Positions 2,403-42,512 of a DNA stretch of 45,368 nt are shown here, piece after piece; position 1 is the first letter of the stretch; every line of letters starts with the position of its first letter. Made by a program: the position numbers and the translations under genes. Source of the stretch: Bdellovibrionales bacterium (GTDB taxonomy: Bacteria > Bdellovibrionota > Bdellovibrionia > Bdellovibrionales > UBA1609). The stretch spans positions 1-45,368 of the forward strand of contig JBFWVI010000025.1 in assembly GCA_050246815.1 (NCBI GenBank), given 5' to 3'. The notes beneath the pieces were generated by a model. That model ran no database searches and had not been told where the DNA came from. It was given only the letters and a program-made list of their open reading frames with translations.

Positions 2403-2657
2403 GGGGTCTCCGTGTTAATGAACAAACGGATTTGACCATGTTCGATCATGGCAGGCAACCGAGACCGGCATTGTGCAGCGCATTCTTGTGTCGCAAAAGG
2501 CGCTATTCGGCGGTGGCCAGGCATACCTCGCTTGTTGACGGTTCGCTGTTTCATTCTCAATTAGTTTAAACAAACTCAACTTTCTAGATCGTTTGTATGA
2601 CTTTGGTCGGATCAATGATCGGGCCTCGACTTTAGCCGTGATTAGGGGCAGTGCACC

Positions 2658-2691
2658 TGCAGATTTGGACACAAAATCCGAAAAAGAATTA
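2658..2691 (+). promoter_or_regulatory. Putative sigma28 (FliA)-type promoter, leaderless geometry
   Basis: TGCAG(2658-2662)-N14-TCCGAAAA(2677-2684)-N7-ATG(2692), versus consensus TAAAG-N14-GCCGATAA. No Shine-Dalgarno. Same spacing as the site at 18626. Confidence 0.45.
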
Positions 2692-4629
2692 ATGGCCATG
2701 TTGTTGAAACTGTTTATTTTGCTCGCCCCCGTGCCTGCCGTGGCGGTGACCCTCGCTGAGGTGCAACAAAATCCAGCGTTGTTGTTGAAGGCGACCAGCG
2801 CCGACATGCAATCGCTGGATTCGCAATTGAAGGCGTCGTCTTTGGGTGCCAACGCCAAGGCCAATGCTTCGGCTAAACTTAAAAACCTAGTCCACATTAA
2901 ACAAAAACTGGATGAGTGTTTGGGCAAGCTGGAGGACGCACGGGGTTTGCGTGCCTCGATTTTAGGTGGAGCCTTGGCGGACGATTGTTTGTCTCAGGCC
3001 TTCGGCTACAATCGGCCACTGAGCGTGGCCTTTGATCTTTCGGCCGTCGCATCGGCTGCCACCTATGCCGATGTAAAAAAAATGGTCGAAGAAAGAAGCC
3101 TCAGCAACGCCGCTCGTACGATTTTTGATTACCGAACGCAATTTGAGGGCGCCAAGCCTTTGCCCAAAGCGGGAGATGAAAAGGCTTTGAAGATTTTGGC
3201 CAATGAGATCTGCCACGGTTGCAGTGAAAAACAGAGGAAATACTTTGCCGACGCATTTGATAAGCACCTGAAAGAAACAAGAAAACCCAGCAGCAAACTT
3301 TCCATCAACGAAGTTTTGCACCAGCAAAATCAGACCCTGGCGGGTTTAAATGCACGTTTAGAAAAAATGGAAGAAGCCAAGAACAAAAAAGACGAAAAGG
3401 CCTTCGGCGAACTTTATGACCGATATTTAGAAGACTATCAGCGCTACGTCAGTACTCCTGCAGGTGCCTTGTTTATGACTGGGGCGGTACGCGATGTTGT
3501 GGGCAAGGTGATCACGCCCGAGGATGTGGGCAAAAAATATTGGTTGGTCGGGGATAAAACATTGCCCCGCCACAAGCCCTTGGGTAAGCGACCTTACTGC
3601 GGGCGTTCGGGCGCTTGCCAGCCAGAAGATGAACTGAAGCTTCGGCAAGGCTTGCGCGAGATTGAATCCAAAGTGGCGGACTTCACGCAAAAGAAGGTTC
3701 GGGCAAAATCTTTTACCGATCTGATGAAAGTGGATCCCGCCTTGGCCGGCCAGATGTTGGTTATCAATCCAGGTCTGATGTATGAAGCCTGCACGTCGAT
3801 TCAAGAGATCACCAAGGCGGATCTACGTGACAAAGAATTATTGAGCGGAGTCGACACTTTTGTGAATGTCTTGGATGGCGCATCCATGGCCTTGATGGTC
3901 ACGGGAGTGGGTGGGGTGGTCGCTAAGGGTATCAGCAGCGTGGCTGCTGCGGGCGCCCGCGCCGCGACTCGGGCTTTGGCAAGTAATCTAACAAGTCCAT
4001 CCGGGCGTTCTGCCATTATGTCTGGAATGGGTTCGGCAACCATTGGCCGTGGCTCTCTTCGTACAACCGCAGGTCAAATCATGGGGCGCACGGCTATCGT
4101 CGGCGCTGTATCTGAAGCTGGTCATGCCATCAGTGACGGCGGTAAGATGATCGAGTTTTCTGGCCGCGCCGATATACTGGTGGCTAGTCGCATGGCTCGG
4201 GCCACCAGCGACATGGATGTTCAGCGTCTAACGGAAATTGAAAGCCAATGGGATGAATCCTTGGGGCGCTTGCTGCGGGGCTCGGCCACAAACGCTCTTC
4301 CTTTGGCGAATGGGTTGATGCGGATTCGCTCGAGCAAATATCTCTCCGGGCTTTTTAAGAACAAAAAAGATCTTGCGTCAGAACTGGAAGCGGACGCCAA
4401 ACTTTTGCAGTCGATTGAAATCCTGGGGCCAGAAGGAATCAAAAAAATGACCGACGTGGCGGGCCAATTGGGTCTTAATCAGGACGGTTTGGCGGGAGCG
4501 TTGGCAGCGGCTGCGCAACTTCCGGGCGGCACGGAAAAAATATTGAAAGCCTTAAAGGGAAGTGCGCCGGGTAAATGGCTCAAAGAGCTGTCCGAAGTCG
4601 GCAGTGCGGGGTTGGCATGCGCCATCTAA
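2692..4629 (+). CDS. Large secreted hypothetical protein with Cys-containing helical N-region and Gly/Ala-rich hydrophobic segments
   Basis: ORF 2593..4629. ATG 2692/2698 gives a signal peptide (MLLKLFILLAPVPAVA). Hydrophobic stretch VLDGASMALMVTGVGGVVAKGISSVAAAG. No recognisable family. Confidence 0.8.
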   Translation: MAMLLKLFILLAPVPAVAVTLAEVQQNPALLLKATSADMQSLDSQLKASSLGANAKANASAKLKNLVHIKQKLDECLGKLEDARGLRASILGGALADDCLSQAFGYNRPLSVAFDLSAVASAATYADVKKMVEERSLSNAARTIFDYRTQFEGAKPLPKAGDEKALKILANEICHGCSEKQRKYFADAFDKHLKETRKPSSKLSINEVLHQQNQTLAGLNARLEKMEEAKNKKDEKAFGELYDRYLEDYQRYVSTPAGALFMTGAVRDVVGKVITPEDVGKKYWLVGDKTLPRHKPLGKRPYCGRSGACQPEDELKLRQGLREIESKVADFTQKKVRAKSFTDLMKVDPALAGQMLVINPGLMYEACTSIQEITKADLRDKELLSGVDTFVNVLDGASMALMVTGVGGVVAKGISSVAAAGARAATRALASNLTSPSGRSAIMSGMGSATIGRGSLRTTAGQIMGRTAIVGAVSEAGHAISDGGKMIEFSGRADILVASRMARATSDMDVQRLTEIESQWDESLGRLLRGSATNALPLANGLMRIRSSKYLSGLFKNKKDLASELEADAKLLQSIEILGPEGIKKMTDVAGQLGLNQDGLAGALAAAAQLPGGTEKILKALKGSAPGKWLKELSEVGSAGLACAI

Positions 4630-6128
4630 ACATTTTCGCACTGATTTTTTTTGTTTCATCATTGGCTCGGGCCAACAGCGGTTCGCCGCAAAAGTGCGAT
4701 GATGTGACAGCCGCCGTTGGGCAAGTTTTAAATCGCATCGACGCTGCCGAGCCTGCAGCAGCCGCTGCGGTTCTGCAGCAAGCCGCACACAGCACTTCGG
4801 CGCCGGCCGCGGCAGCGGTGGAAGATGCCTACAAAGCCATGGGCATTCGTGTGCGGGATCCCGCCGGAGCCAACTATGCCTCACAAATCATTGAGGACTC
4901 TTATCAGCTTGAGACGAAGGCCACACGCGCCCTGGCTGCGGGTGGACAGCAAGAGGCCGCCGCACGGGCTGCCATCGGTCATAAGCTGAACGAGTTGACC
5001 GAGGCCAGTAAAGGCGCCGACATCAACACACTGGAGCGTCTAAAAAGACAAAAAGCAAGTTTGCTTCGTTTATCTTACTTGAACAAAAGAAAGCTTGAAA
5101 GTTTGTCGACTGACGAACTTGTTGCTTTAGAAAAAAAGATCGAAGGCCTTTTTCCGAGGGGTGAGCAGTTTAGCCCGCCAGCCCATTTATTGGCGGAAAA
5201 AGAATTTTTAAAAGAGATCACAGCGGCACTCGCAAAAAAACCTGATTATATGGACGCCAAACGTCGTGCGATTGCCGCGATCGGACAGCAACAACGCGCA
5301 CAGGACAAAGCACGGGAGATGACTTATCGCACCAGTCACGCTCTGGACGCGGCTCGTCCTTTGACGACAAAACAAGTAGAAGTGATGGGTAAAGCCATCG
5401 AAGCAATGAAAAAAGATCCTGCCGCCTTAACGCCCGATCAAGTCCGATGGATGACCGAGATGCGTGAACAAATCAGTGCCAAACAAAAATGGAAAGACGG
5501 TGATTACCGTGGGATGACTTCTGAAGACGAGGCCCGCGTGACGGAATTCGTTCGGGCTTGGGACGATGCTGTAGGCGCAATTTCCCGTCGTACTAAAAGT
5601 ATGGAGGCTTTGGCCGCAGAGCAAGGGCGGCGTATGGGGCCCGCGCTTTCAAATCGACAGGTGCAAGACACTTGGGGCCAAAACACAGGGCGTCGAGCGG
5701 CTTCATCGCGTGGAGAGCTGGATCGTCGAGCTCATCCCGAGGCTGATCGTATAGTTGAAACCCTTCAATTGGCTTCGCCGGGTAGCAGTGCCACTCGCTT
5801 GCGTGAAGTTGTGAATTATAATCCGGTTGTTACGCGTCAAGCCGGTATGAATAGTTTGGCGGAACAGCTGGGGCCTCTTGGTGTAACTCGGCAGCAACTT
5901 GAATCTGCCAACGTGCTTTCCGCTATTGATCCGACCAATGTGGGTGTTGTTTTGAATGATTTAGAGAGGGCACGTGAATTTTTACGACACGTGGAAACTG
6001 CAGAAAATCGCGGCCAGCTTTCGGTTCAGGGGAACAGGGAGCTTCGTCAGTTGGTCGACACCGTGCGATTCCATGTCAACAGCTACGTGCCCCCGCATTT
6101 GCAGAGGCTGGGCCGTTATAACGATTAA
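4617..6128 (+). CDS. Secreted helical hypothetical protein
   Basis: ATG 4617 gives signal peptide MRHLNIFALIFFVSSLARA. Overlaps the upstream gene by 13 nt, implying an operon. Ala/Glu/Lys/Arg-rich helical composition. Confidence 0.8.
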   Translation: MRHLNIFALIFFVSSLARANSGSPQKCDDVTAAVGQVLNRIDAAEPAAAAAVLQQAAHSTSAPAAAAVEDAYKAMGIRVRDPAGANYASQIIEDSYQLETKATRALAAGGQQEAAARAAIGHKLNELTEASKGADINTLERLKRQKASLLRLSYLNKRKLESLSTDELVALEKKIEGLFPRGEQFSPPAHLLAEKEFLKEITAALAKKPDYMDAKRRAIAAIGQQQRAQDKAREMTYRTSHALDAARPLTTKQVEVMGKAIEAMKKDPAALTPDQVRWMTEMREQISAKQKWKDGDYRGMTSEDEARVTEFVRAWDDAVGAISRRTKSMEALAAEQGRRMGPALSNRQVQDTWGQNTGRRAASSRGELDRRAHPEADRIVETLQLASPGSSATRLREVVNYNPVVTRQAGMNSLAEQLGPLGVTRQQLESANVLSAIDPTNVGVVLNDLERAREFLRHVETAENRGQLSVQGNRELRQLVDTVRFHVNSYVPPHLQRLGRYND

Positions 6129-18530: not shown

Positions 18531-18557
18531 ACCAAAAGGTGCCTGGCACCTTTTGGT
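18531..18557. repeat. Perfect 13-bp inverted repeat (REP-like element or terminator) after pilR
   Basis: ACCAAAAGGTGCC-T-GGCACCTTTTGGT, starting 5 nt after the pilR stop. Confidence 0.8.
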
Positions 18558-18659: not shown

Positions 18660-21179
18660 GTGAGGAATGGCGTTCTTTATCTCATTCTAATTTTTATTTT
18701 TCTTGGACGAAGTCTGTCCATTGCGCAAGAGTCCACAGAGCTTTACGAGCTTGCGGATCTTAATGGAGGCAGCTCAATTTGCAGACAAGTGCGCGAACAG
18801 GTGGACGCCAAGGTTTGTGTGCCCGGTGCAAAACAATTCACCGAATTGAAACTTCAAGGAAAGGCCTGGGTGCGGACGGCCTCGGCGCGCAATATCAAAG
18901 TGAATCTATTTTCTAAACTCGGGCAGAGTTTTCAATTTGACGCCGAGATCGCACAGCAGCTGGGTGGAGTAAAACTGTGGCAGTCCAAGCGGGTACAAGA
19001 AAGTCTTAAGAAAGCTCAAAGTCTTTGTGCGCAGGCCGCCCCGGATGGGAGCCTTAAGCGTTCGTTCGACAAATTGATCGGTGAGGTTCAAGCGGATAGC
19101 CCGATTCGAGCGCAACTTAAAAAGTTAAATGAAGAAGAGCGCCAGATCGTGATGGGCCGCCAAATTTTGGCGCGCATGGAAAGTGTGCGGTTGACGAAGA
19201 CACTGAACAATAAAATGGAGCGTGGGACCGCTCGTGAACGACTGCGCGACAAGCGCAGAAACATTCAGCTGAGTTACCCCATGTCACAAGAGTTGACCCC
19301 CTGGACTGTCCAAGACCATCTGCAGGATCAGCCGAACTTCACCAAAACATCGCAGTTGGTCATCTCGCGTGAAGAAGAGCATTTGGTAGACTTTGTCTTG
19401 GGCTTGACCGAAGACGAAAAATCGGCCGCTCAGGCGCTATCAAAGCTCAAGGATCGTCGTGATCTGAACTGGTCCACTTTAATCGCGCAAAAAATCATCG
19501 CCAAGGAGCCTTTGCCACAAAAATTGGTGAAGGTCATGCAGGAGGATTGGGAGGAAACTTACGCGACTAAGGTCGAAGCTTTAGGAAAAATGTGTGATGC
19601 CACAACCTGCGAGGCCTATGACATGTCTCACCAGATTACCTTGGAGCTTCTCAATTCAACCCCCGCCCATGAGCAACAAAACCTGCTGGGCGATATGTGT
19701 CACTGCAATCTGTCGCATGGCACGGAATGGTTGCCAAGGGGCACCAACTGGGTTCTGGGCGGCGCGGTCTTGGGTGGCGTGGTTTCTTGTTTGGCCACGA
19801 ATGTGGCTTGCCCCGCCTTGGCCACAATCGGGGTCGCCAGCGCCACTATCACGGCAGCCGATTCCGTTGTTAACCTAAGCGACAGCCTGCGCATTGGTCG
19901 CTCGCTGCAGTTGGTGCGGCCCTTGCGCGGTTTGGATATGACGGGGCTAGAAAAAGAACGCCTACAAAAAGTTTCCGGTCGCGCCGCCTTAAAGGGTTTG
20001 GGTGAGGCCGCGATGGCGTCGACTGTCGTGGGAGCAAATTTTCGACATGCTTTTAGCCCCATTCAAGGTACCAAAGATGTGATTCGCTCGAACCTTGTTC
20101 GTGAACAATCGCTCGCGTGGCGCAAAGAGCTATTGGACAAATATCCGCAATACAAGGACCTGCCTAAGGCCGAGCTTGAGCGGATTTCCAAGGAGGTGAC
20201 AGAAAAAGGTGAGGGCTTCGTCGCCGAGGTTCTGAAAACAAAGGAAATTTCGGTGAAATCTTATTTGAACCAAGATGGCGAGACGATTCTAAAATACACT
20301 CAGGCGGCCGATTTTGACAGCATGGGTGGGCGTATTGTGGAGCGGGTTTTGGCTGTTGACGCCAAGACCGGCGCGATCGACGCCAACTTTCCCGGTGGTC
20401 AGCGTTTGGTGCAGGCTATTTTTGAAAGTGCCGAAGATGATCTGGTGTTGATTTTTAAAGACTTAAACCATTTGGGCGCGACCAATTACTTTCACCATGG
20501 CCAAGCCGCAGGCGATCTTTATTTGCAAGCTTTTGGGGCCGCAGTTCGGCAAAATCTTAGGCCCGGTGATTTGATGCTGAAAACTGGCGGTGATGAGTTG
20601 GTGTCGGTCGTGCCTCTAAAGGATCCCGCGATTGCTCAGAATCCAGAAAAAGTTCAAGATGCGGTCAACGGCCTTTTGCAAAGAATGGTGGATGCTGTCC
20701 ACAACAGTAAAGAGGCCGCCGCGGTATTCAAAACCCAAGCTAAAGTTTTGGTGGATGAGTTGAAGGCCGTCGACAAAGCATTAAGCGCGCAAGATCTACC
20801 TAAACAGCTGGCGGCAAAATTGACTCCAGAGCAGATGCAGTTGGCGAGCAGCAATTTTCCGCAATTTCGTGCCGAATTTTTGACCGCGCAAAAAGAAATG
20901 ATCAAAAAGCATGTGGCCTATCGACCCTCTATTTCGATCGGCGCGACCGTGGTGAAGCCTGGTGGATCCTACGAAGAGGCCAAGCTTTTAGCCGAAACCC
21001 AGGCCAAAATGGTGAAGGTGGATTACAAGGCGCAAATGGGTGCAAGCAGTGAAGAGCTTAGCAAATATCGCGTTCCGGTGAAGCCCGTAGAAGACACCGG
21101 CTTAAGGCGAGTGCAAGATATAAAGCCGCGGCCCTTGAATCCCGCCATTTTGGACCCGGGTAAAGCCGCCAAGGAATAA
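18660..21179 (+). CDS. Secreted/membrane protein with C-terminal divergent GGDEF (diguanylate cyclase-like) domain
   Basis: Signal peptide, then ~340-aa helical Cys-containing region, a hydrophobic segment, and DAKTG...KDLNHLGATNYFHHGQAAGDLYL...RPGDLMLKTGGDEL...SISIG. Confidence 0.8.
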   Translation: MRNGVLYLILIFIFLGRSLSIAQESTELYELADLNGGSSICRQVREQVDAKVCVPGAKQFTELKLQGKAWVRTASARNIKVNLFSKLGQSFQFDAEIAQQLGGVKLWQSKRVQESLKKAQSLCAQAAPDGSLKRSFDKLIGEVQADSPIRAQLKKLNEEERQIVMGRQILARMESVRLTKTLNNKMERGTARERLRDKRRNIQLSYPMSQELTPWTVQDHLQDQPNFTKTSQLVISREEEHLVDFVLGLTEDEKSAAQALSKLKDRRDLNWSTLIAQKIIAKEPLPQKLVKVMQEDWEETYATKVEALGKMCDATTCEAYDMSHQITLELLNSTPAHEQQNLLGDMCHCNLSHGTEWLPRGTNWVLGGAVLGGVVSCLATNVACPALATIGVASATITAADSVVNLSDSLRIGRSLQLVRPLRGLDMTGLEKERLQKVSGRAALKGLGEAAMASTVVGANFRHAFSPIQGTKDVIRSNLVREQSLAWRKELLDKYPQYKDLPKAELERISKEVTEKGEGFVAEVLKTKEISVKSYLNQDGETILKYTQAADFDSMGGRIVERVLAVDAKTGAIDANFPGGQRLVQAIFESAEDDLVLIFKDLNHLGATNYFHHGQAAGDLYLQAFGAAVRQNLRPGDLMLKTGGDELVSVVPLKDPAIAQNPEKVQDAVNGLLQRMVDAVHNSKEAAAVFKTQAKVLVDELKAVDKALSAQDLPKQLAAKLTPEQMQLASSNFPQFRAEFLTAQKEMIKKHVAYRPSISIGATVVKPGGSYEEAKLLAETQAKMVKVDYKAQMGASSEELSKYRVPVKPVEDTGLRRVQDIKPRPLNPAILDPGKAAKE

Positions 21180-24256: not shown

Positions 24257-24526
24257 ATGATACGTGTATTTCAATTGGCCGCCGCCGTTTTAATCGCCAG
24301 TGCTAGTACAATGGCTTTGGCGGGACCACCCACGATCAACGACAAGCCCACCGTCATTGGCCAGAAGTGCGTTGACTGGGCACTCAAAGAAACCGAAAAA
24401 ATTCACGATGCGGACAAACGTCGCGCGGAAGTGCACAAAAAGGCGAAAGAGTGTCTTCTCAAGAATAAAATGGATCCAAACGCTCGCGATTTAACCGAGC
24501 CGCACATCAAAAAGATGTTGAAATAA
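24257..24526 (+). CDS. Small secreted hypothetical protein
   Basis: AAGGAG RBS; signal peptide ending ALA; two Cys; basic helical mature part. Confidence 0.75.
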   Translation: MIRVFQLAAAVLIASASTMALAGPPTINDKPTVIGQKCVDWALKETEKIHDADKRRAEVHKKAKECLLKNKMDPNARDLTEPHIKKMLK

Positions 24527-25086: not shown

Positions 25087-25458
25087 CTAAAAGCTACAAG
25101 CCTTACGCAACTTTTTTATCGCCAGATTTTCGCTATAAAAAGTGCAAGATCCCAATTTGAGCACATTGCACAAAGCCTCTCCATTGCTTTTTACCATGGA
25201 GCAAGAGCTTGCGTTTGCGCCCCGACAAATGGCTTCGGCCGAAGTTTTGACTTGTGGGCACAGGTCTCCGCCCATATCGCGGCAAAGTTTGTTGGGCGAG
25301 ATATCTTTGTTATTATACCAGCCTCTCAGTGCTCTACAAATTTTTGAGGAGGGTGTGGTTTGCGCTACGGCTGCAGACCATGGGTTCGAAGAGAAAAGTA
25401 GAATGATAAATATGAACGAGACACAAAACCTTTTTTTCATACATTTAGACTCTACCAT
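25087..25458 (-). CDS. Small secreted Cys-rich hypothetical protein
   Basis: Signal peptide (MKKRFCVSFIFIILLFSS...AVA); mature part has 8 Cys in an internally repeated A-I/L-C-x6-7-C pattern; AT-rich. Confidence 0.7.
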   Translation of the reverse strand: MVESKCMKKRFCVSFIFIILLFSSNPWSAAVAQTTPSSKICRALRGWYNNKDISPNKLCRDMGGDLCPQVKTSAEAICRGANASSCSMVKSNGEALCNVLKLGSCTFYSENLAIKKLRKACSF

Positions 25459-26450: not shown

Positions 26451-27596
26451 CTAAAGCTTCCTTAGATATACTGATTGGCTTACGGAGTTAACGAGTATCA
26501 CGGCATTGTAGCTTGGAACATAACGAAATCGTCCGTAGGTGCCTGCCCCTGCAGGGTTACCCGGCGATAGAGTGCTTGAGGCGTCGAGGGGAATTGAGGA
26601 CCAGTTCCATGTGCCAGTCACAGCCGCTGGAATCGAGAGCGCATAGAGACCAGTTCCGCCGTTCCAGCCTAGTATCCTGTCGCCATTTGGGTCATAAACA
26701 AATCCTGGAGACTGGGCAGAAGAGCCTAATCCTGTGCCACTTTGTGTAATTCTAACTGGCGCTGTATTGGGCGAATTTAAGTCAAAAACCAAAATTCCGT
26801 AACCTTGTACAAAGAGTAAGAATCTGTTTCTTTTCGTATCGATTGTTGCTGTTGCATAGCTATAGAGTCCGTATCCGGAATTGAAAGAAGTCCATTTATT
26901 GAGATCTGGATCATAGGACTGCAAACGATTGTTAGAACTCTCGCCCGGCAGATACCATAAAAGCTTGGTTACGGGATTGTAACGAGCAACAGCAAAAATA
27001 TTCGAACCCGATATTGATGGCAAGGCCCCTCTTGTCCAAGGTTGCCCTGTCATTCCATTAACAGAGAAATTATACAAATCGACAGCGTTTTGGGAAAAGC
27101 CATTCGAATACTGTGATCCAACCCCGACGCTTATCATTTTTTTAAAGGGCGCAGGCAAATAATCCAAAAGGTCATAGGTATGTCTTGAAACTGGTCGACC
27201 ATCCGAACCATAGGTCGAATTATTCGCTGCTGGGGAGCTTGGATTGGTTAATCTTTCCCATTTTGGGTTTTCCGAAGTGATGGGTCCAAATCGATAAATT
27301 TCATTTCCTGAGTAATCTGTATGTCCCCCACCCCATATCACGAAATAGTCATTGTCTGTGTCATAGACACCAGAATTCCAGGCCGTGATCACCGGTGCGT
27401 TGTTGACTCCAGGGGGGGAGACCGAACTCATAAGAGAGTTGGGAAATGCATACCAAACGTTCGACTTCAGATTGTTAAGCGCAGAATTCCCAGAAACAGC
27501 TTGTTGCTGCACTACAATTCTAGTTGGTGTGGATTTGACGGTGGCTCCCCAGCTGGATTGGATAAGCAACAGGAGACCTAAAATTTTATACTCCAT
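26451..27596 (-). CDS. Secreted Kelch/galactose-oxidase-like beta-propeller hypothetical protein
   Basis: Signal peptide; repeated YDP/YNP...W blade-like units; WGGGHTDYSGNEIY, DGRPVSRHTYD, GTYGRFRY; Ser/Asn/Gly-rich; AT-richer DNA than flanks. Confidence 0.7.
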   Translation of the reverse strand: MEYKILGLLLLIQSSWGATVKSTPTRIVVQQQAVSGNSALNNLKSNVWYAFPNSLMSSVSPPGVNNAPVITAWNSGVYDTDNDYFVIWGGGHTDYSGNEIYRFGPITSENPKWERLTNPSSPAANNSTYGSDGRPVSRHTYDLLDYLPAPFKKMISVGVGSQYSNGFSQNAVDLYNFSVNGMTGQPWTRGALPSISGSNIFAVARYNPVTKLLWYLPGESSNNRLQSYDPDLNKWTSFNSGYGLYSYATATIDTKRNRFLLFVQGYGILVFDLNSPNTAPVRITQSGTGLGSSAQSPGFVYDPNGDRILGWNGGTGLYALSIPAAVTGTWNWSSIPLDASSTLSPGNPAGAGTYGRFRYVPSYNAVILVNSVSQSVYLRKL

Positions 27597-40727: not shown

Positions 40728-41351
40728 TTAAAAGTCGTAATCGAAGCCGAAGACCCACTGCGTGGCATTCCATTGGTACTGATGCACGAATCCCGCCACG
40801 ATCGTGGTCGAGTGTGAAATGCGGCTGGCGGAAAGAAGGGACAAACCGGCCGAGAAAGAAGATTCCCTCTCGATGGAGAAGTTAGGGTCTTTTAGGCTCC
40901 ACATGATTTTACGAAAATGGGCGGGGATCGACAGGTAAATATCAGTCACCGCAGTTCCGCGGTAGACGATTCCGGGGTTGAGTCCGGCCGAGAACCAAGG
41001 TTGATCTTTCAAATAGTCCGGGAAAAAAATGTTGAGGCTAGAGGCTTGTACAGTTCCAAAAGCGGCTTCAAAACCCAAGGAATGATACCAGCGTTTCGAA
41101 TTGCCAAATTTACCTCGGCGCGCGGCGCTCATCATCAGGCCGACGGATTGGGCATAAAAATCGGCTTCATTCGTGGTCCGTTTGGCCGGGATTTTTTCTT
41201 GCCAGAAAACTAGACGTGGGCCGAACCACCAATTTGCCTCACTGGGTGGCGGTGCGGCCATTTGACTGCGCGGGCTGGGCGGACGTGGATCATTGGCCCA
41301 GCTAAGGGGGCTGGCCAAGAGGAGTAGACTAATGATCAACAGACGCTTCAT
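40728..41351 (-). CDS. Putative small outer-membrane beta-barrel protein
   Basis: Signal peptide, Pro-rich linker, amphipathic strands, C-terminal GFDYDF beta-signal. Confidence 0.7.
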   Translation of the reverse strand: MKRLLIISLLLLASPLSWANDPRPPSPRSQMAAPPPSEANWWFGPRLVFWQEKIPAKRTTNEADFYAQSVGLMMSAARRGKFGNSKRWYHSLGFEAAFGTVQASSLNIFFPDYLKDQPWFSAGLNPGIVYRGTAVTDIYLSIPAHFRKIMWSLKDPNFSIERESSFSAGLSLLSASRISHSTTIVAGFVHQYQWNATQWVFGFDYDF

Positions 41352-41360
41352 GCCTTCATC

Positions 41361-42512
41361 CTACAACGACAAATGGGCCTGCACGAGAGCTAACCAGCCT
41401 TCGGGCGACACATCATTTGGTGAAATAGATCGAGTGTTTTCAACTTCGGCGCGCAACTCAAGTCGGGGAAAGGGGAACATCAAAAGTCCCGCCCCCGCTT
41501 TAAAGAAATCGGTTTCTGTGGCTTTCATATTTTTTTTGTTGGCCTGGCCGACAAAAAACAAGTGGTAGCCACGGGCCAAGCGCTGCGACATCTGTGAAAA
41601 GACGTAATAGCCTTGTTGAGTCACGTCGGTGCTGGGAGTGTGGTTACGCAAAAGCCCGGCATCCAGCAAAACCGCCGCGCCATAGCCAATTCCAGCGCGC
41701 ACTTGAGCGCCCACTTTTGTGGTTTCTAAAATTTTGCTGCTGGAAGAAAGGACCGAAGCCCCGACGCGAATGTCTTTGGACCACTCGCGATCGTAAAGAA
41801 CGGCGATACCCCGCTGCTGCTCGCTTGCTTTTGCCTTGTACAAATTGCCTAAGAAGGGGTTGGCTGTCAGTTCCCAGGTAGGCTGAACGTAGTGCAGAAC
41901 AGCGCCGTGCGATTGATCGTTTTGGCCAAGACCGATGCCGGCCCGGCTGAAGGCGGTATGGTTGACGATGCGCAGGCCATAAGTTTTGTCCATGAATCCC
42001 ATATAGACCCAGAGAGGATCGCCTGCGCGCCAACGCACATAATGTTCGCGCGAAATATAGGGCTCAGTTTTGGTTGCCGTCGCCGTGGCGGGCTTGGGTT
42101 GATAGCCGATACCGCCGACAAAAATCAACTTTTGTTGGGGGTCCATCAAAATGGCCAAGTTAAAATCGGCCTGCATCAAGATGCTGCGGCTTCTGGTCTC
42201 GGTGCCGCCTGGATTGGTATGCATCCACAGATTGCGAGCTTTAATGCCCGGGCGAATCCACCAAGGCAATTGTTTAGTCCCGAAAAAGCCCGATGAAGCC
42301 GACAGCTTTTCTTCGTTATTACTGGTGAAAACCCGAGACGAAACTTCGGCCGACAGCAGGGCTCGACCATAGTCGTTCAAAGGGCCGTTGCCCTGACCAT
42401 TGTAGTGACAGGTCAAGCAAGAGCCATAGCCGATTCCGATGAATTCCGGGTACGCCCAGCCCCAAGTCGGGAGCATCATTAAGCTTAAGATAAGAAGGTG
42501 AGACAGTTTCAT
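41361..42512 (-). CDS. Putative outer-membrane beta-barrel protein with N-terminal CxxCH motif
   Basis: Signal peptide; YPEFIGIGYGSCLTCHYNGQGNGPLNDYGR; alternating-residue strands; ends VQAHLSL. Confidence 0.72.
   Translation of the reverse strand: MKLSHLLILSLMMLPTWGWAYPEFIGIGYGSCLTCHYNGQGNGPLNDYGRALLSAEVSSRVFTSNNEEKLSASSGFFGTKQLPWWIRPGIKARNLWMHTNPGGTETRSRSILMQADFNLAILMDPQQKLIFVGGIGYQPKPATATATKTEPYISREHYVRWRAGDPLWVYMGFMDKTYGLRIVNHTAFSRAGIGLGQNDQSHGAVLHYVQPTWELTANPFLGNLYKAKASEQQRGIAVLYDREWSKDIRVGASVLSSSSKILETTKVGAQVRAGIGYGAAVLLDAGLLRNHTPSTDVTQQGYYVFSQMSQRLARGYHLFFVGQANKKNMKATETDFFKAGAGLLMFPFPRLELRAEVENTRSISPNDVSPEGWLALVQAHLSL

Follow-up and report, generated by a model that had tools for sequence, protein, structure and literature searches.

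Enzymes of the GGDEF family are generally treated as cytoplasmic devices of self-signalling. In canonical diguanylate cyclases such as PleD, SadC and WspR, as well as DgcA-D and CdgA of Bdellovibrio bacteriovorus, a palm fold is combined with a GGDE loop, the residues D327, N335, D344 and K442 (PleD numbering) and a characteristic RxxD spacing. The stretch of DNA studied here, contig JBFWVI010000025.1 of a Bdellovibrionales bacterium (assembly GCA_050246815.1; 45,368 nucleotides, hereafter the window), encodes an 839-amino acid (aa) protein which shares all of these features or their equivalents. Unlike the canonical cyclases, however, it has LG in place of FK, NY in place of ND, a 69-aa insertion, a beta subdomain and a signal peptide, and it lacks a recognised sensor. 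None of the five GGDEF proteins of B. bacteriovorus HD100, as described in PMC3271064, has such an architecture. The domain belongs to a subfamily whose members nearly always open with an export signal, which was unexpected. As an evenly balanced judgement, we propose that the 839-aa protein might be a Sec-exported predator effector making cyclic diguanosine monophosphate (c-di-GMP) from the GTP of the prey. Slightly better than even, in our view, is the broader notion that Bdellovibrio-like predators run an immunity-free mix-and-match effector system, in which several disulfide-rich, Sec-exported carriers bring enzymes into the cytoplasm of the prey, a dedicated GGDEF subfamily, including tandems of an active and a dead domain, being one of the main cargoes; a second-messenger synthase would then be used as a weapon against other bacteria, and its product may be a new guanine nucleotide.

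A close organizational parallel is found in the polymorphic toxin systems (Zhang et al. 2012, PMC3482391, as far as covered here), with which the proteins share a conserved N-terminal trafficking part followed by variable, toxin-type cargoes, and likewise a patchy distribution and, as predicted here, export by Sec and type II secretion. Unlike polymorphic toxins, the carrier family has no adjacent immunity gene and no orphan cassette array that we could see, and no Pfam match. The 839-aa protein may accordingly be said to work like a polymorphic toxin yet to lack two features of that class, the immunity gene and the cassettes. Where toxins outnumber immunity genes, this is read as indicating use between species (Zhang et al. 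2012, PMC3482391), and within the first 300,000 of the 357,715 characters of that article neither GGDEF nor Bdellovibrio occurs. Phages and plasmids encode polyvalent proteins with GGDEF domains, which have been suggested to interfere with nucleotide signalling of the host (Iyer et al. 2017, PMC5512222), and predatory Omnitrophota have giant proteins whose GGDEF domains are linked to neighbouring PilZ genes (bioRxiv 10.1101/2023.11.21.568195). These are, as described in the parts of both sources considered, conflict-type proteins as proposed here, but they reside on mobile elements or in giant membrane proteins, whereas the 839-aa protein is chromosomal, of Sec type and built on a Cys-rich carrier. 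Other secreted systems of Bdellovibrionota are described in the covered part of the lipocone paper. In the full-text literature, including few subscription papers and no supplements, neither these carriers nor an exported subfamily of GGDEF proteins was found described, and the matches to phrases on secreted, exported, periplasmic or toxin GGDEF proteins concern, as listed, light-regulated cyclases only; supplementary gene tables could list members of the subfamily without comment.

Hydrophobic hairpins are carried by colicin-like and type VI effectors. The 839-aa protein shares with these a long, uncharged, Gly/Ala-rich two-helix stretch that separates an enzymatic cargo from the soluble helical domain ahead of it; it differs in having no sequence or structure match to them and a Cys pair at the turn. 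A preliminary description, made from the letters of the sequence, had already delimited the reading frame and named its motifs, and each of these was recovered at the position given. The open reading frame (ORF) begins with GTG and is organized as follows (all features on the + strand).

18660-21179 (+): whole ORF, 839 aa; signal peptide, Cys-rich carrier, uncharged hairpin, linker and GGDEF-variant cargo
18660-18725 (+): predicted Sec signal peptide, residues 1-22 (hydropathy and pass of a strict heuristic)
18726-19739 (+): all-helical carrier domain, residues 23-360, with seven Cys (alignment and structure model)
19740-19859 (+): uncharged Gly/Ala/Ser/Thr-rich stretch of 40 residues, residues 361-400; predicted helical hairpin with putative membrane insertion
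19860-20249 (+): helical linker, residues 401-530 (extents of homologue matches)
20250-21176 (+): GGDEF-variant cargo, residues 531-839; beta-hairpin subdomain, palm core, 69-aa helical insertion and a Pro-rich tail folding back
20457-20516 (+): nucleotide-binding segment with D601, G606, N609 and D619 (alignment to SadC and family counts)
20559-20600 (+): RPGD at primary inhibitory-site (I-site) spacing, five residues, then the GGDEL active-site loop (motif positions)
20709-20915 (+): four-helix, family-specific insertion, residues 684-752 (DSSP of the model; present across the GGDEF-variant family)
21015-21068 (+): K786, K790 and K802-Y803 (alignment and family counts)

The individual motifs start at 19749 (WVLGG, residue 364), 19842 (ATITAA), 20358 (DAKTG), 20457 (KDLNHLGATNY), 20499 (GQAAGD), 20559 (RPGD), 20586 (GGDEL) and 20928 (SISIG), so that RPGD lies five residues ahead of GGDEL, as had been described. 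Three full-length homologues were found, at 46-47% identity. One gene call in the databases (P0002) begins at residue 44 and drops the signal peptide; since D33, G36, G37, S38, C41 and R42, all upstream of that start, are invariant in four of four close homologues, and since the ESM Atlas entry has the 839-aa form, the longer start is favoured. A frameshift or assembly artefact was ruled out, as contigs from two runs, both of which may stem from the source sample, contain no indels; one X1 contig spans 18534-22500. Six strain variants lie within the ORF, three of them synonymous and three missense, and none introduces a stop.

With respect to the GGDEF domain, which had been placed at about 20358-21030, the fold was borne out whereas the extent was not: the domain is longer on its N-terminal side, where it opens with a beta-hairpin subdomain near residue 531, and it ends near residue 835. 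Pfam PF00990 matches the protein with 35 bits (cut-off 23.8, E 1.5e-8), and NCBIfam TIGR00254 with 30.7 bits, under its cut-off of 37.4. A model of residues 531-839 calculated by AlphaFold2 (AF2) from a 22-sequence alignment reached a predicted local distance difference test score (pLDDT) of 92.5; the top Foldseek matches of this model are all GGDEF proteins, and comparison by VIA gave a Z of 19.3 to SadC (root-mean-square deviation 2.1 over 159 residues); the diguanylate cyclases matched score Z 17-19, compared with Z 9-11 for other palm enzymes. Residues 531-839 firmly represent a true GGDEF fold. The helical insertion ahead of SISIG, previously estimated at about 70 aa, comprises 69 aa in the DSSP assignment (residues 684-752). 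The absence of a PAS, HAMP, REC or GAF input domain likewise held, as none of these had a Pfam match in the N-terminal region.

Alignment to SadC and counts over the family agreed with the earlier statement that the key cyclase residues are retained while FK is replaced by LG, and added a second replacement, of ND by NY, which is followed by a one-residue insertion; the Phe of GGDEF is Leu in the 839-aa protein. The metal ligands (D327 and E370 in PleD) and the GG(D/E)E loop are present, as D601 and as GGDE at residues 643-646, and so are the guanine-reading residues N335 and D344, as N609 and D619; the roles of PleD D327, K332, N335 and D344 are described in PMC7288161 and PMC12943098. Of the triphosphate ligands K442 and R446, the former aligns with K786 through the lysine of the canonical 'AK', and K786 and K790, the latter by its +4 spacing, are likely to be their counterparts. 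The position of K332 is occupied by G606, so that the transition-state lysine is missing; this residue is assigned that role in PMC12943098, while the review PMC7288161, in the part considered, has it contribute its main chain only. The same review gives Ser at the D344 position as the mark of Hypr GGDEF enzymes (cyclic GMP-AMP synthases), and this Ser is absent here (D619) and from all 76 single-domain members (D in 69, N in 7). The protein is a member of the GGDEF family and not a Hypr enzyme, with one canonical cyclase feature, K332, lacking.

Among the single-domain members, a class which was defined by GDE so that this motif is not counted, D601 is kept in 75/76, N609 in 75/76, D619 in 69/76, K786 in 68/68, K790 in 62/67 and K802 in 65/67; the K332 position is Gly in 67/76, and RxxD is intact in 43/77. 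Tandem members possess two GGDEF-variant domains, the first of which has GDE in 43/43 and D601 in 42/42 but RxxD in 0/43. In their second domain the metal Asp is lost (K in 22, N in 12, D in 8, S in 1), as is GGDE, and both guanine residues are kept in 43/43 and RxxD in 23/43. This pattern suggests that the tandem form may be a single-chain pair of an active and a dead domain, possibly with a linear product. The catalytic residues are better kept than the I-site, which makes a synthase likelier than a sink or receptor, and the residue pattern as a whole points to an enzyme that uses GTP more than to a dead receptor, although its chemistry is somewhat doubtful. A homodimer prediction of the cargo with GTP and Mg scored 0.07. 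Tandem proteins include P0028, P0037-P0039, P0042, P0045, P0046, L045 and L037, and short tandem forms are present in the complete genomes G101 and G199.

Relatives were collected by phmmer over 1.84 billion representatives, from which the best 150 of 436 matches at E <=0.001 were used. In the resulting set, 132 of 153 proteins scored at least 80 bits on a profile of the variant domain, two of them being records of the 839-aa protein itself; the remainder consists of twelve proteins with lower scores (eleven canonical GGDEFs and one fragment), eight that match in the N-terminal region only and one that is unrelated. The variant is recognised by DxxTxAIDAN, FxDxNxLGxxNYF, GxxxGD, GGDE(F/L), the helical insertion, PSxSIG, AExQAxxxKxxYK and KY. 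In a quick tree of 135 columns, built with Shimodaira-Hasegawa-like approximate likelihood ratio (SH-aLRT) support only and no one-clade test, a single branch separates 175 variant domains from 19 canonical ones, the six of the same genome included (SH-aLRT 89). Of the 301 genomes examined from the order, 34 have the variant domain (E <=1e-25), as do 15 of 401 from the phylum, six of the latter lying outside the order and the own genome being counted in both. The GGDEF variant is a distinct, patchily distributed subfamily of Bdellovibrionota. One member is named Pseudobdellovibrionaceae by NCBI, in line with a Bdellovibrio relative as the producer. Searches for the GGDEF variant in viral contigs (pattern scan) and in GenBank phages (tblastn) gave no match, and pattern scans of genome contigs (two loci) and metagenome contigs (one locus) gave weak, unrelated matches only; word-index searches, which are insensitive, returned 4, 2 and 8 matches. 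PADLOC had no match for the 839-aa protein. One family copy, L024 (G277:C25:322465-323553), has five internal stops and is apparently a pseudogene; it belongs to the same genus as the intact copy of G006.

The Sec-like signal peptide of the earlier account is supported by hydropathy and by the strict heuristic: residues 1-22 comprise a basic n-region and a hydrophobic h-region, with S-I-A ahead of Q23. All signal-peptide calls are based on hydropathy heuristics, the loose version of which proved too permissive and was superseded by a strict version with controls. By the latter, 74 of 131 database members pass, many of them fragments, versus 463 of 12008 internal-Met decoys (3.9%). Among genome copies whose 5' end is closed by an upstream stop, 27 of 32 pass versus 2 of 14 canonical GGDEF frames; any start within the first 70 codons was accepted in this test, which inflates the pass counts. 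In 81 of 92 members the n-region carries a net positive charge, pointing to an N-in, C-out orientation. In 15 of the 27 signal-bearing genome copies there is no segment of Kyte-Doolittle hydropathy (KD) >=1.3 between the signal and the GGDEF domain, which argues against a one-pass sensor. Many members consist of just a signal peptide and 30-150 polar residues ahead of the domain, and the copies in G191, G248, G199, G101 and G203 start one or two codons past a stop, with the domain beginning 50-70 codons in. Such short, carrier-less members have no membrane helix on which a sensor topology could be built, and they argue more strongly for an exported GGDEF domain than does the hairpin. The carrier-less P0008 and P0009 group with the clade of the 839-aa protein (support 97). 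Cysteines sit ahead of the domain, 71 of 92 members having none in or after it. The GGDEF-variant family is therefore predicted to be Sec-exported. A separate ORF of genome G028, L011:1294-2115 (-), encodes a GGDEF of canonical type (GGEEF, Ser at the K332 position) with a signal-peptide-like start and no membrane segment, possibly a second, independent exported GGDEF.

The helical, Cys-containing region of about 340 aa which had been noted ahead of the hydrophobic stretch corresponds to residues 23-360, all-helical in the AF2 model and containing seven of the nine Cys of the protein (41, 53, 123, 312, 317, 347, 349, 377 and 384). The carrier family extends over residues 23-455, and C123, C312, C317, C347 and C349 are invariant in all 18 aligned carrier proteins. 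The model has pLDDT values of mostly 80-95 for residues 70-350 and below 50 for residues 354-470; in this low-confidence part lie two helices, 367-380 and 385-395. The Gly/Ala-rich stretch of about 40 aa, now residues 361-400, is present in 18/18 carrier proteins as an uncharged run of 37-62 aa with a median of 56% G/A/S/T, and the C377-C384 pair is central to it (C384 invariant, C377 in at least 90%). No Pfam family scores above its cut-off in the carrier, and the model has no Foldseek match at E <=0.001 and no significant match to sensor or other solved folds. A chorismate mutase-like fold was rejected, as the best VIA Z of 5.3 is not significant and reflects a common helical arrangement. 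In the ESM Atlas, the structure rows for the N-terminal region all have TM <0.3, and feature matches to PT-TG, Tle1-like and DUF4225 clusters, at 0.82-0.86, are leads only.

The preliminary description had proposed to look for a polymorphic-effector pattern, and homologues of the N-terminal region indeed bear different C-termini, with at least five cargo types on this carrier. Similarity between carriers stops near residue 455 of the linker, the cargo swap point, and N-only matches end at query residues 432-460; linker residues from about 485 to 530 are common to carrier-less relatives, the G006 match beginning at residue 485. The same carrier is found with an Amidoligase_2 domain (P0128, 67 bits, above cut-off), with HExxH domains of weak Tox-MPTase4 similarity (E 0.016-0.18 in three of five scanned, below cut-off), with an ADP-ribosyltransferase (ART)-like domain (L056, E 3.5e-4, 20.4 bits versus a cut-off of 22.3), with a tandem GGDEF variant (P0028), with a tail that looks GNAT-like by eye but has no Pfam match (L105), and with other C-terminal domains of no assigned family (P0101, P0110, P0118, P0123 and L060). 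L057 / L070:6338-7945 (G195) has the carrier and about 90 further residues with no recognisable cargo; a second secreted-looking ORF overlaps the stop codon of L057. A carrier-led profile matched 14 of the 301 genomes of the order, nine over the carrier and five over the HExxH cargo only.

Conversely, the N-terminal regions of GGDEF-variant proteins fall into 16 clusters (96 regions; four clusters with 12-30 members), and the variant sits on at least four carrier types. When the carrier profiles were compared, only clusters c0 and c1 were related (probability 96.2), and at this sensitivity the carrier of the 839-aa protein has no relation to any of the other three. In the domain tree, the eleven single-domain rows with this carrier need eight label changes, at least three of which are forced by branches with support of at least 95. 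A cargo related to the HExxH domain of P0106 occurs behind other N-terminal regions (L053, L054, L055, L058, L059 and L106), and P0050, of 3792 aa, joins a tandem GGDEF variant to a CdiA C-terminal toxin domain. Carriers and cargoes are thus shuffled in both directions. L055 also has a GNAT-like segment by eye; P0050 has no signal peptide and no Cys, and shows a weak kinase-like stretch and, by eye, HExxH motifs.

Taken as a prey-directed effector, the 839-aa protein would be exported by Sec and, after signal cleavage, reside in the periplasm of the predator, where its Cys pairs would form disulfides and where it would lack GTP as a substrate. Export would in this way part the enzyme from the GTP of its producer and make an immunity gene unnecessary. 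The outer membrane would then be crossed, most plausibly through the type II secretion system of the genome, upon prey contact or within the prey periplasm. At what we consider the least certain step, the uncharged hairpin would insert into the inner membrane of the prey and bring the Cys-free cargo to its cytoplasm; carrier-less members might rely on prey membrane damage or another delivery route. There, two cargo domains would meet and condense GTP to c-di-GMP with no sensory input, and the product would stop motility and division of the prey and drain its GTP. In E. coli, growth is arrested when c-di-GMP synthesis runs away, probably because GTP is depleted (PMC10127611). Of the two roles suggested before, a c-di-GMP synthase or a sink delivered by an effector, the effector is supported by the shuffled cargoes, and the sink has become less likely than the synthase because the catalytic residues are better kept than the I-site. 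If this reading is right, c-di-GMP joins the nucleotide signals used as weapons, and the carriers may constitute a new protein-delivery module. For the killing and immobilisation of prey and for effector delivery by Bdellovibrio-like predators, PMC13689555 and PMC12428579, as far as covered, offer little mechanism; the GGDEF-variant family provides named carriers, a swap point, cargoes and short members of 300-370 aa that are assayable in E. coli.

Several observations weigh against this interpretation. The producer appears to be a Bdellovibrio relative, and we infer its predatory lifestyle from that kinship. The gene was not found in three genomes of the same genus (74-96% complete) and is accordingly not core to predation. 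The loose signal-peptide heuristic passes 702 of 1528 ORFs of the own genome and the strict any-start version 975 of 3487, real exported proteins included, and most of the calls for cargoes other than GGDEF lie under Pfam cut-offs or were made by eye. Since the hairpin is absent from carrier-less members, delivery in general cannot depend on it. Many canonical cyclases are dimerised by a coiled-coil input helix; in the model a beta-hairpin replaces this helix, which leaves the pairing of the cargo unexplained. The prevalence of Gly at the K332 position implies that chemistry or rate may differ from those of canonical cyclases. Finally, growth arrest of E. coli required a cyclase without I-sites (PMC10127611), and the 839-aa protein keeps RxxD, which limits product build-up in canonical enzymes, so that hijacking of signalling may matter more than loss of GTP.

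Alternatively, the protein would be exported and directed at prey as proposed, but the domain, instead of completing the c-di-GMP ring, would form linear pppGpG or another guanine oligonucleotide, or transfer GMP to a prey target, which we regard as rather unlikely. Gly at the K332 position, NY for ND throughout the family, and the unique insertion and beta subdomain are in line with such an activity, as is the second domain of the tandems, which retains both guanine residues (43/43) without metal Asp and GGDE. A tandem would then amount to one donor and one acceptor site, and to one phosphodiester bond per chain. The two-palm arrangement of Cas10 offers an analogy for this layout. However, the 839-aa protein is single-domain with a complete half-site, its closest folds are without exception diguanylate cyclases, and K332 contributes with its main chain alone according to the review PMC7288161.

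A little less probable, and in our estimate unlikely, is that the protein is exported but never translocated, and acts in the periplasm of predator or prey on GTP leaking from damaged prey, either producing an outside c-di-GMP signal (a cue of occupancy or nutrients) or serving as a GTP sink. A periplasmic role would suit the carrier-less members, in which nothing is available to cross a membrane; it would also suit the alteration or disruption that the inner membrane of the prey undergoes during predation (PMC13689555, PMC12428579, as far as covered), and the usually cytoplasmic domains carried by other signal-peptide proteins of the genome. Against it stands the repeated recruitment of several carrier types with uncharged or amphipathic stretches, as does the range of ART-like, amidoligase and peptidase-like cargoes found on one and the same carrier. 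The usual substrates of these cargoes are cytoplasmic.

An ordinary one-pass sensor cyclase, with a signal peptide, a periplasmic sensor, a single membrane helix and the GGDEF domain in the cytoplasm of the producer, is improbable. Such a topology would agree with the Cys-free cargo and the intact RxxD feedback motif, and B. bacteriovorus DgcD is described as strain-variable and as having a periplasmic domain (PMC3271064, in the part covered); moreover, the stretch peaks at KD 1.77, and the multi-pass helices of the window are no more hydrophobic. Yet the run of 37-62 uncharged residues has a Cys pair at its centre, and its summed insertion energy, at a median of +2.1 in the carrier family and +3.4 in the 839-aa protein, lies far above the -2.0 to -4.1 of the helices of PilC and the HAMP kinase of the window, although the carrier stretch falls within the range of multi-pass helices. 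The nearest relatives of the cargo have no such segment at all, the same N-terminal region bears cargoes unrelated to signalling, and neither a HAMP nor a coiled-coil transmitter is present. Least probable is a catalytically dead nucleotide binder that sequesters c-di-GMP through the I-site or senses GTP: the lost K332 position, Leu for the GGDEF Phe, the presence of RxxD and a score under the TIGR00254 cut-off would fit it, but the metal, guanine and triphosphate residues are near-invariant across members of about 25-40% identity, and RxxD is the motif that is kept in a part of the single-domain members and in none of the first tandem domains.

The gene sits after a pilB-pilT-pilC-pilS-pilR operon and faces a convergent short-chain dehydrogenase/reductase (SDR) gene. 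A functional tie to the pil operon was ruled out, as other genes follow pilR in G001, G036 and G008, the contigs of G002 and G003 ending too early to tell. The GC content and third-position GC content (GC3) of the gene resemble those of its neighbours, and a promoter and terminator scan at the gene stayed at chance level. The 16 flanked loci of other genomes have no shared neighbour beyond housekeeping and regulatory genes, no cassette array, no standalone toxin cassette and no recognisable immunity gene; a lone small downstream ORF, as at L081, may be an unrecognised one. The genome itself (G000) is 99.1% complete and contains six canonical GGDEF genes in addition to that of the 839-aa protein, and no second copy of carrier or cargo; it encodes a DgcB orthologue (355 bits to B. 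bacteriovorus PDB 6hbz). GspD scores above cut-off, a type VI sheath gene was not found in the genome, and a search for two-partner secretion gave no signal anywhere, its controls being silent as well.

Just past pilR, at 18531-18557, lies a perfect palindrome of 27 bp, likely a repetitive extragenic palindromic (REP)-like repeat or a terminator. Counted over both strands and with at most one mismatch, its 16-nt core matches 48 times, corresponding to about 24 sites genome-wide, and depth spikes and breaks of public contigs coincide with it. In G000, 36 of the 975 signal-peptide-positive ORFs have C-[DE]-x-x-[LIMAV] within 25 residues past the signal, where about six are expected; examples are C17:17959-19401 (L090), C39:808-3765 (L097), C73:4984-8223 (L100), C1:13110-14243 (L083) and C22:17185-18912 (L091). 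Several of the 20 such ORFs that were scanned carry usually cytoplasmic domains (P450, PPDK_N, SpoVR with DUF444, HODM and GT2), and short GGDEF-variant members often open, by eye, with a similar motif, which perhaps serves the lineage as a general tag for export or delivery. Elsewhere in the window, signal peptides and no Pfam match are found in the ORFs 24257-24526 (+, 89 aa), 25087-25458 (-, Cys-rich, 123 aa) and 26451-27596 (-, 381 aa, beta-propeller-looking), and further long ORFs with no Pfam match are located at 2593-4629 (678 aa), 4575-6128 (517 aa), 40728-41351 (207 aa) and 41361-42512 (383 aa).

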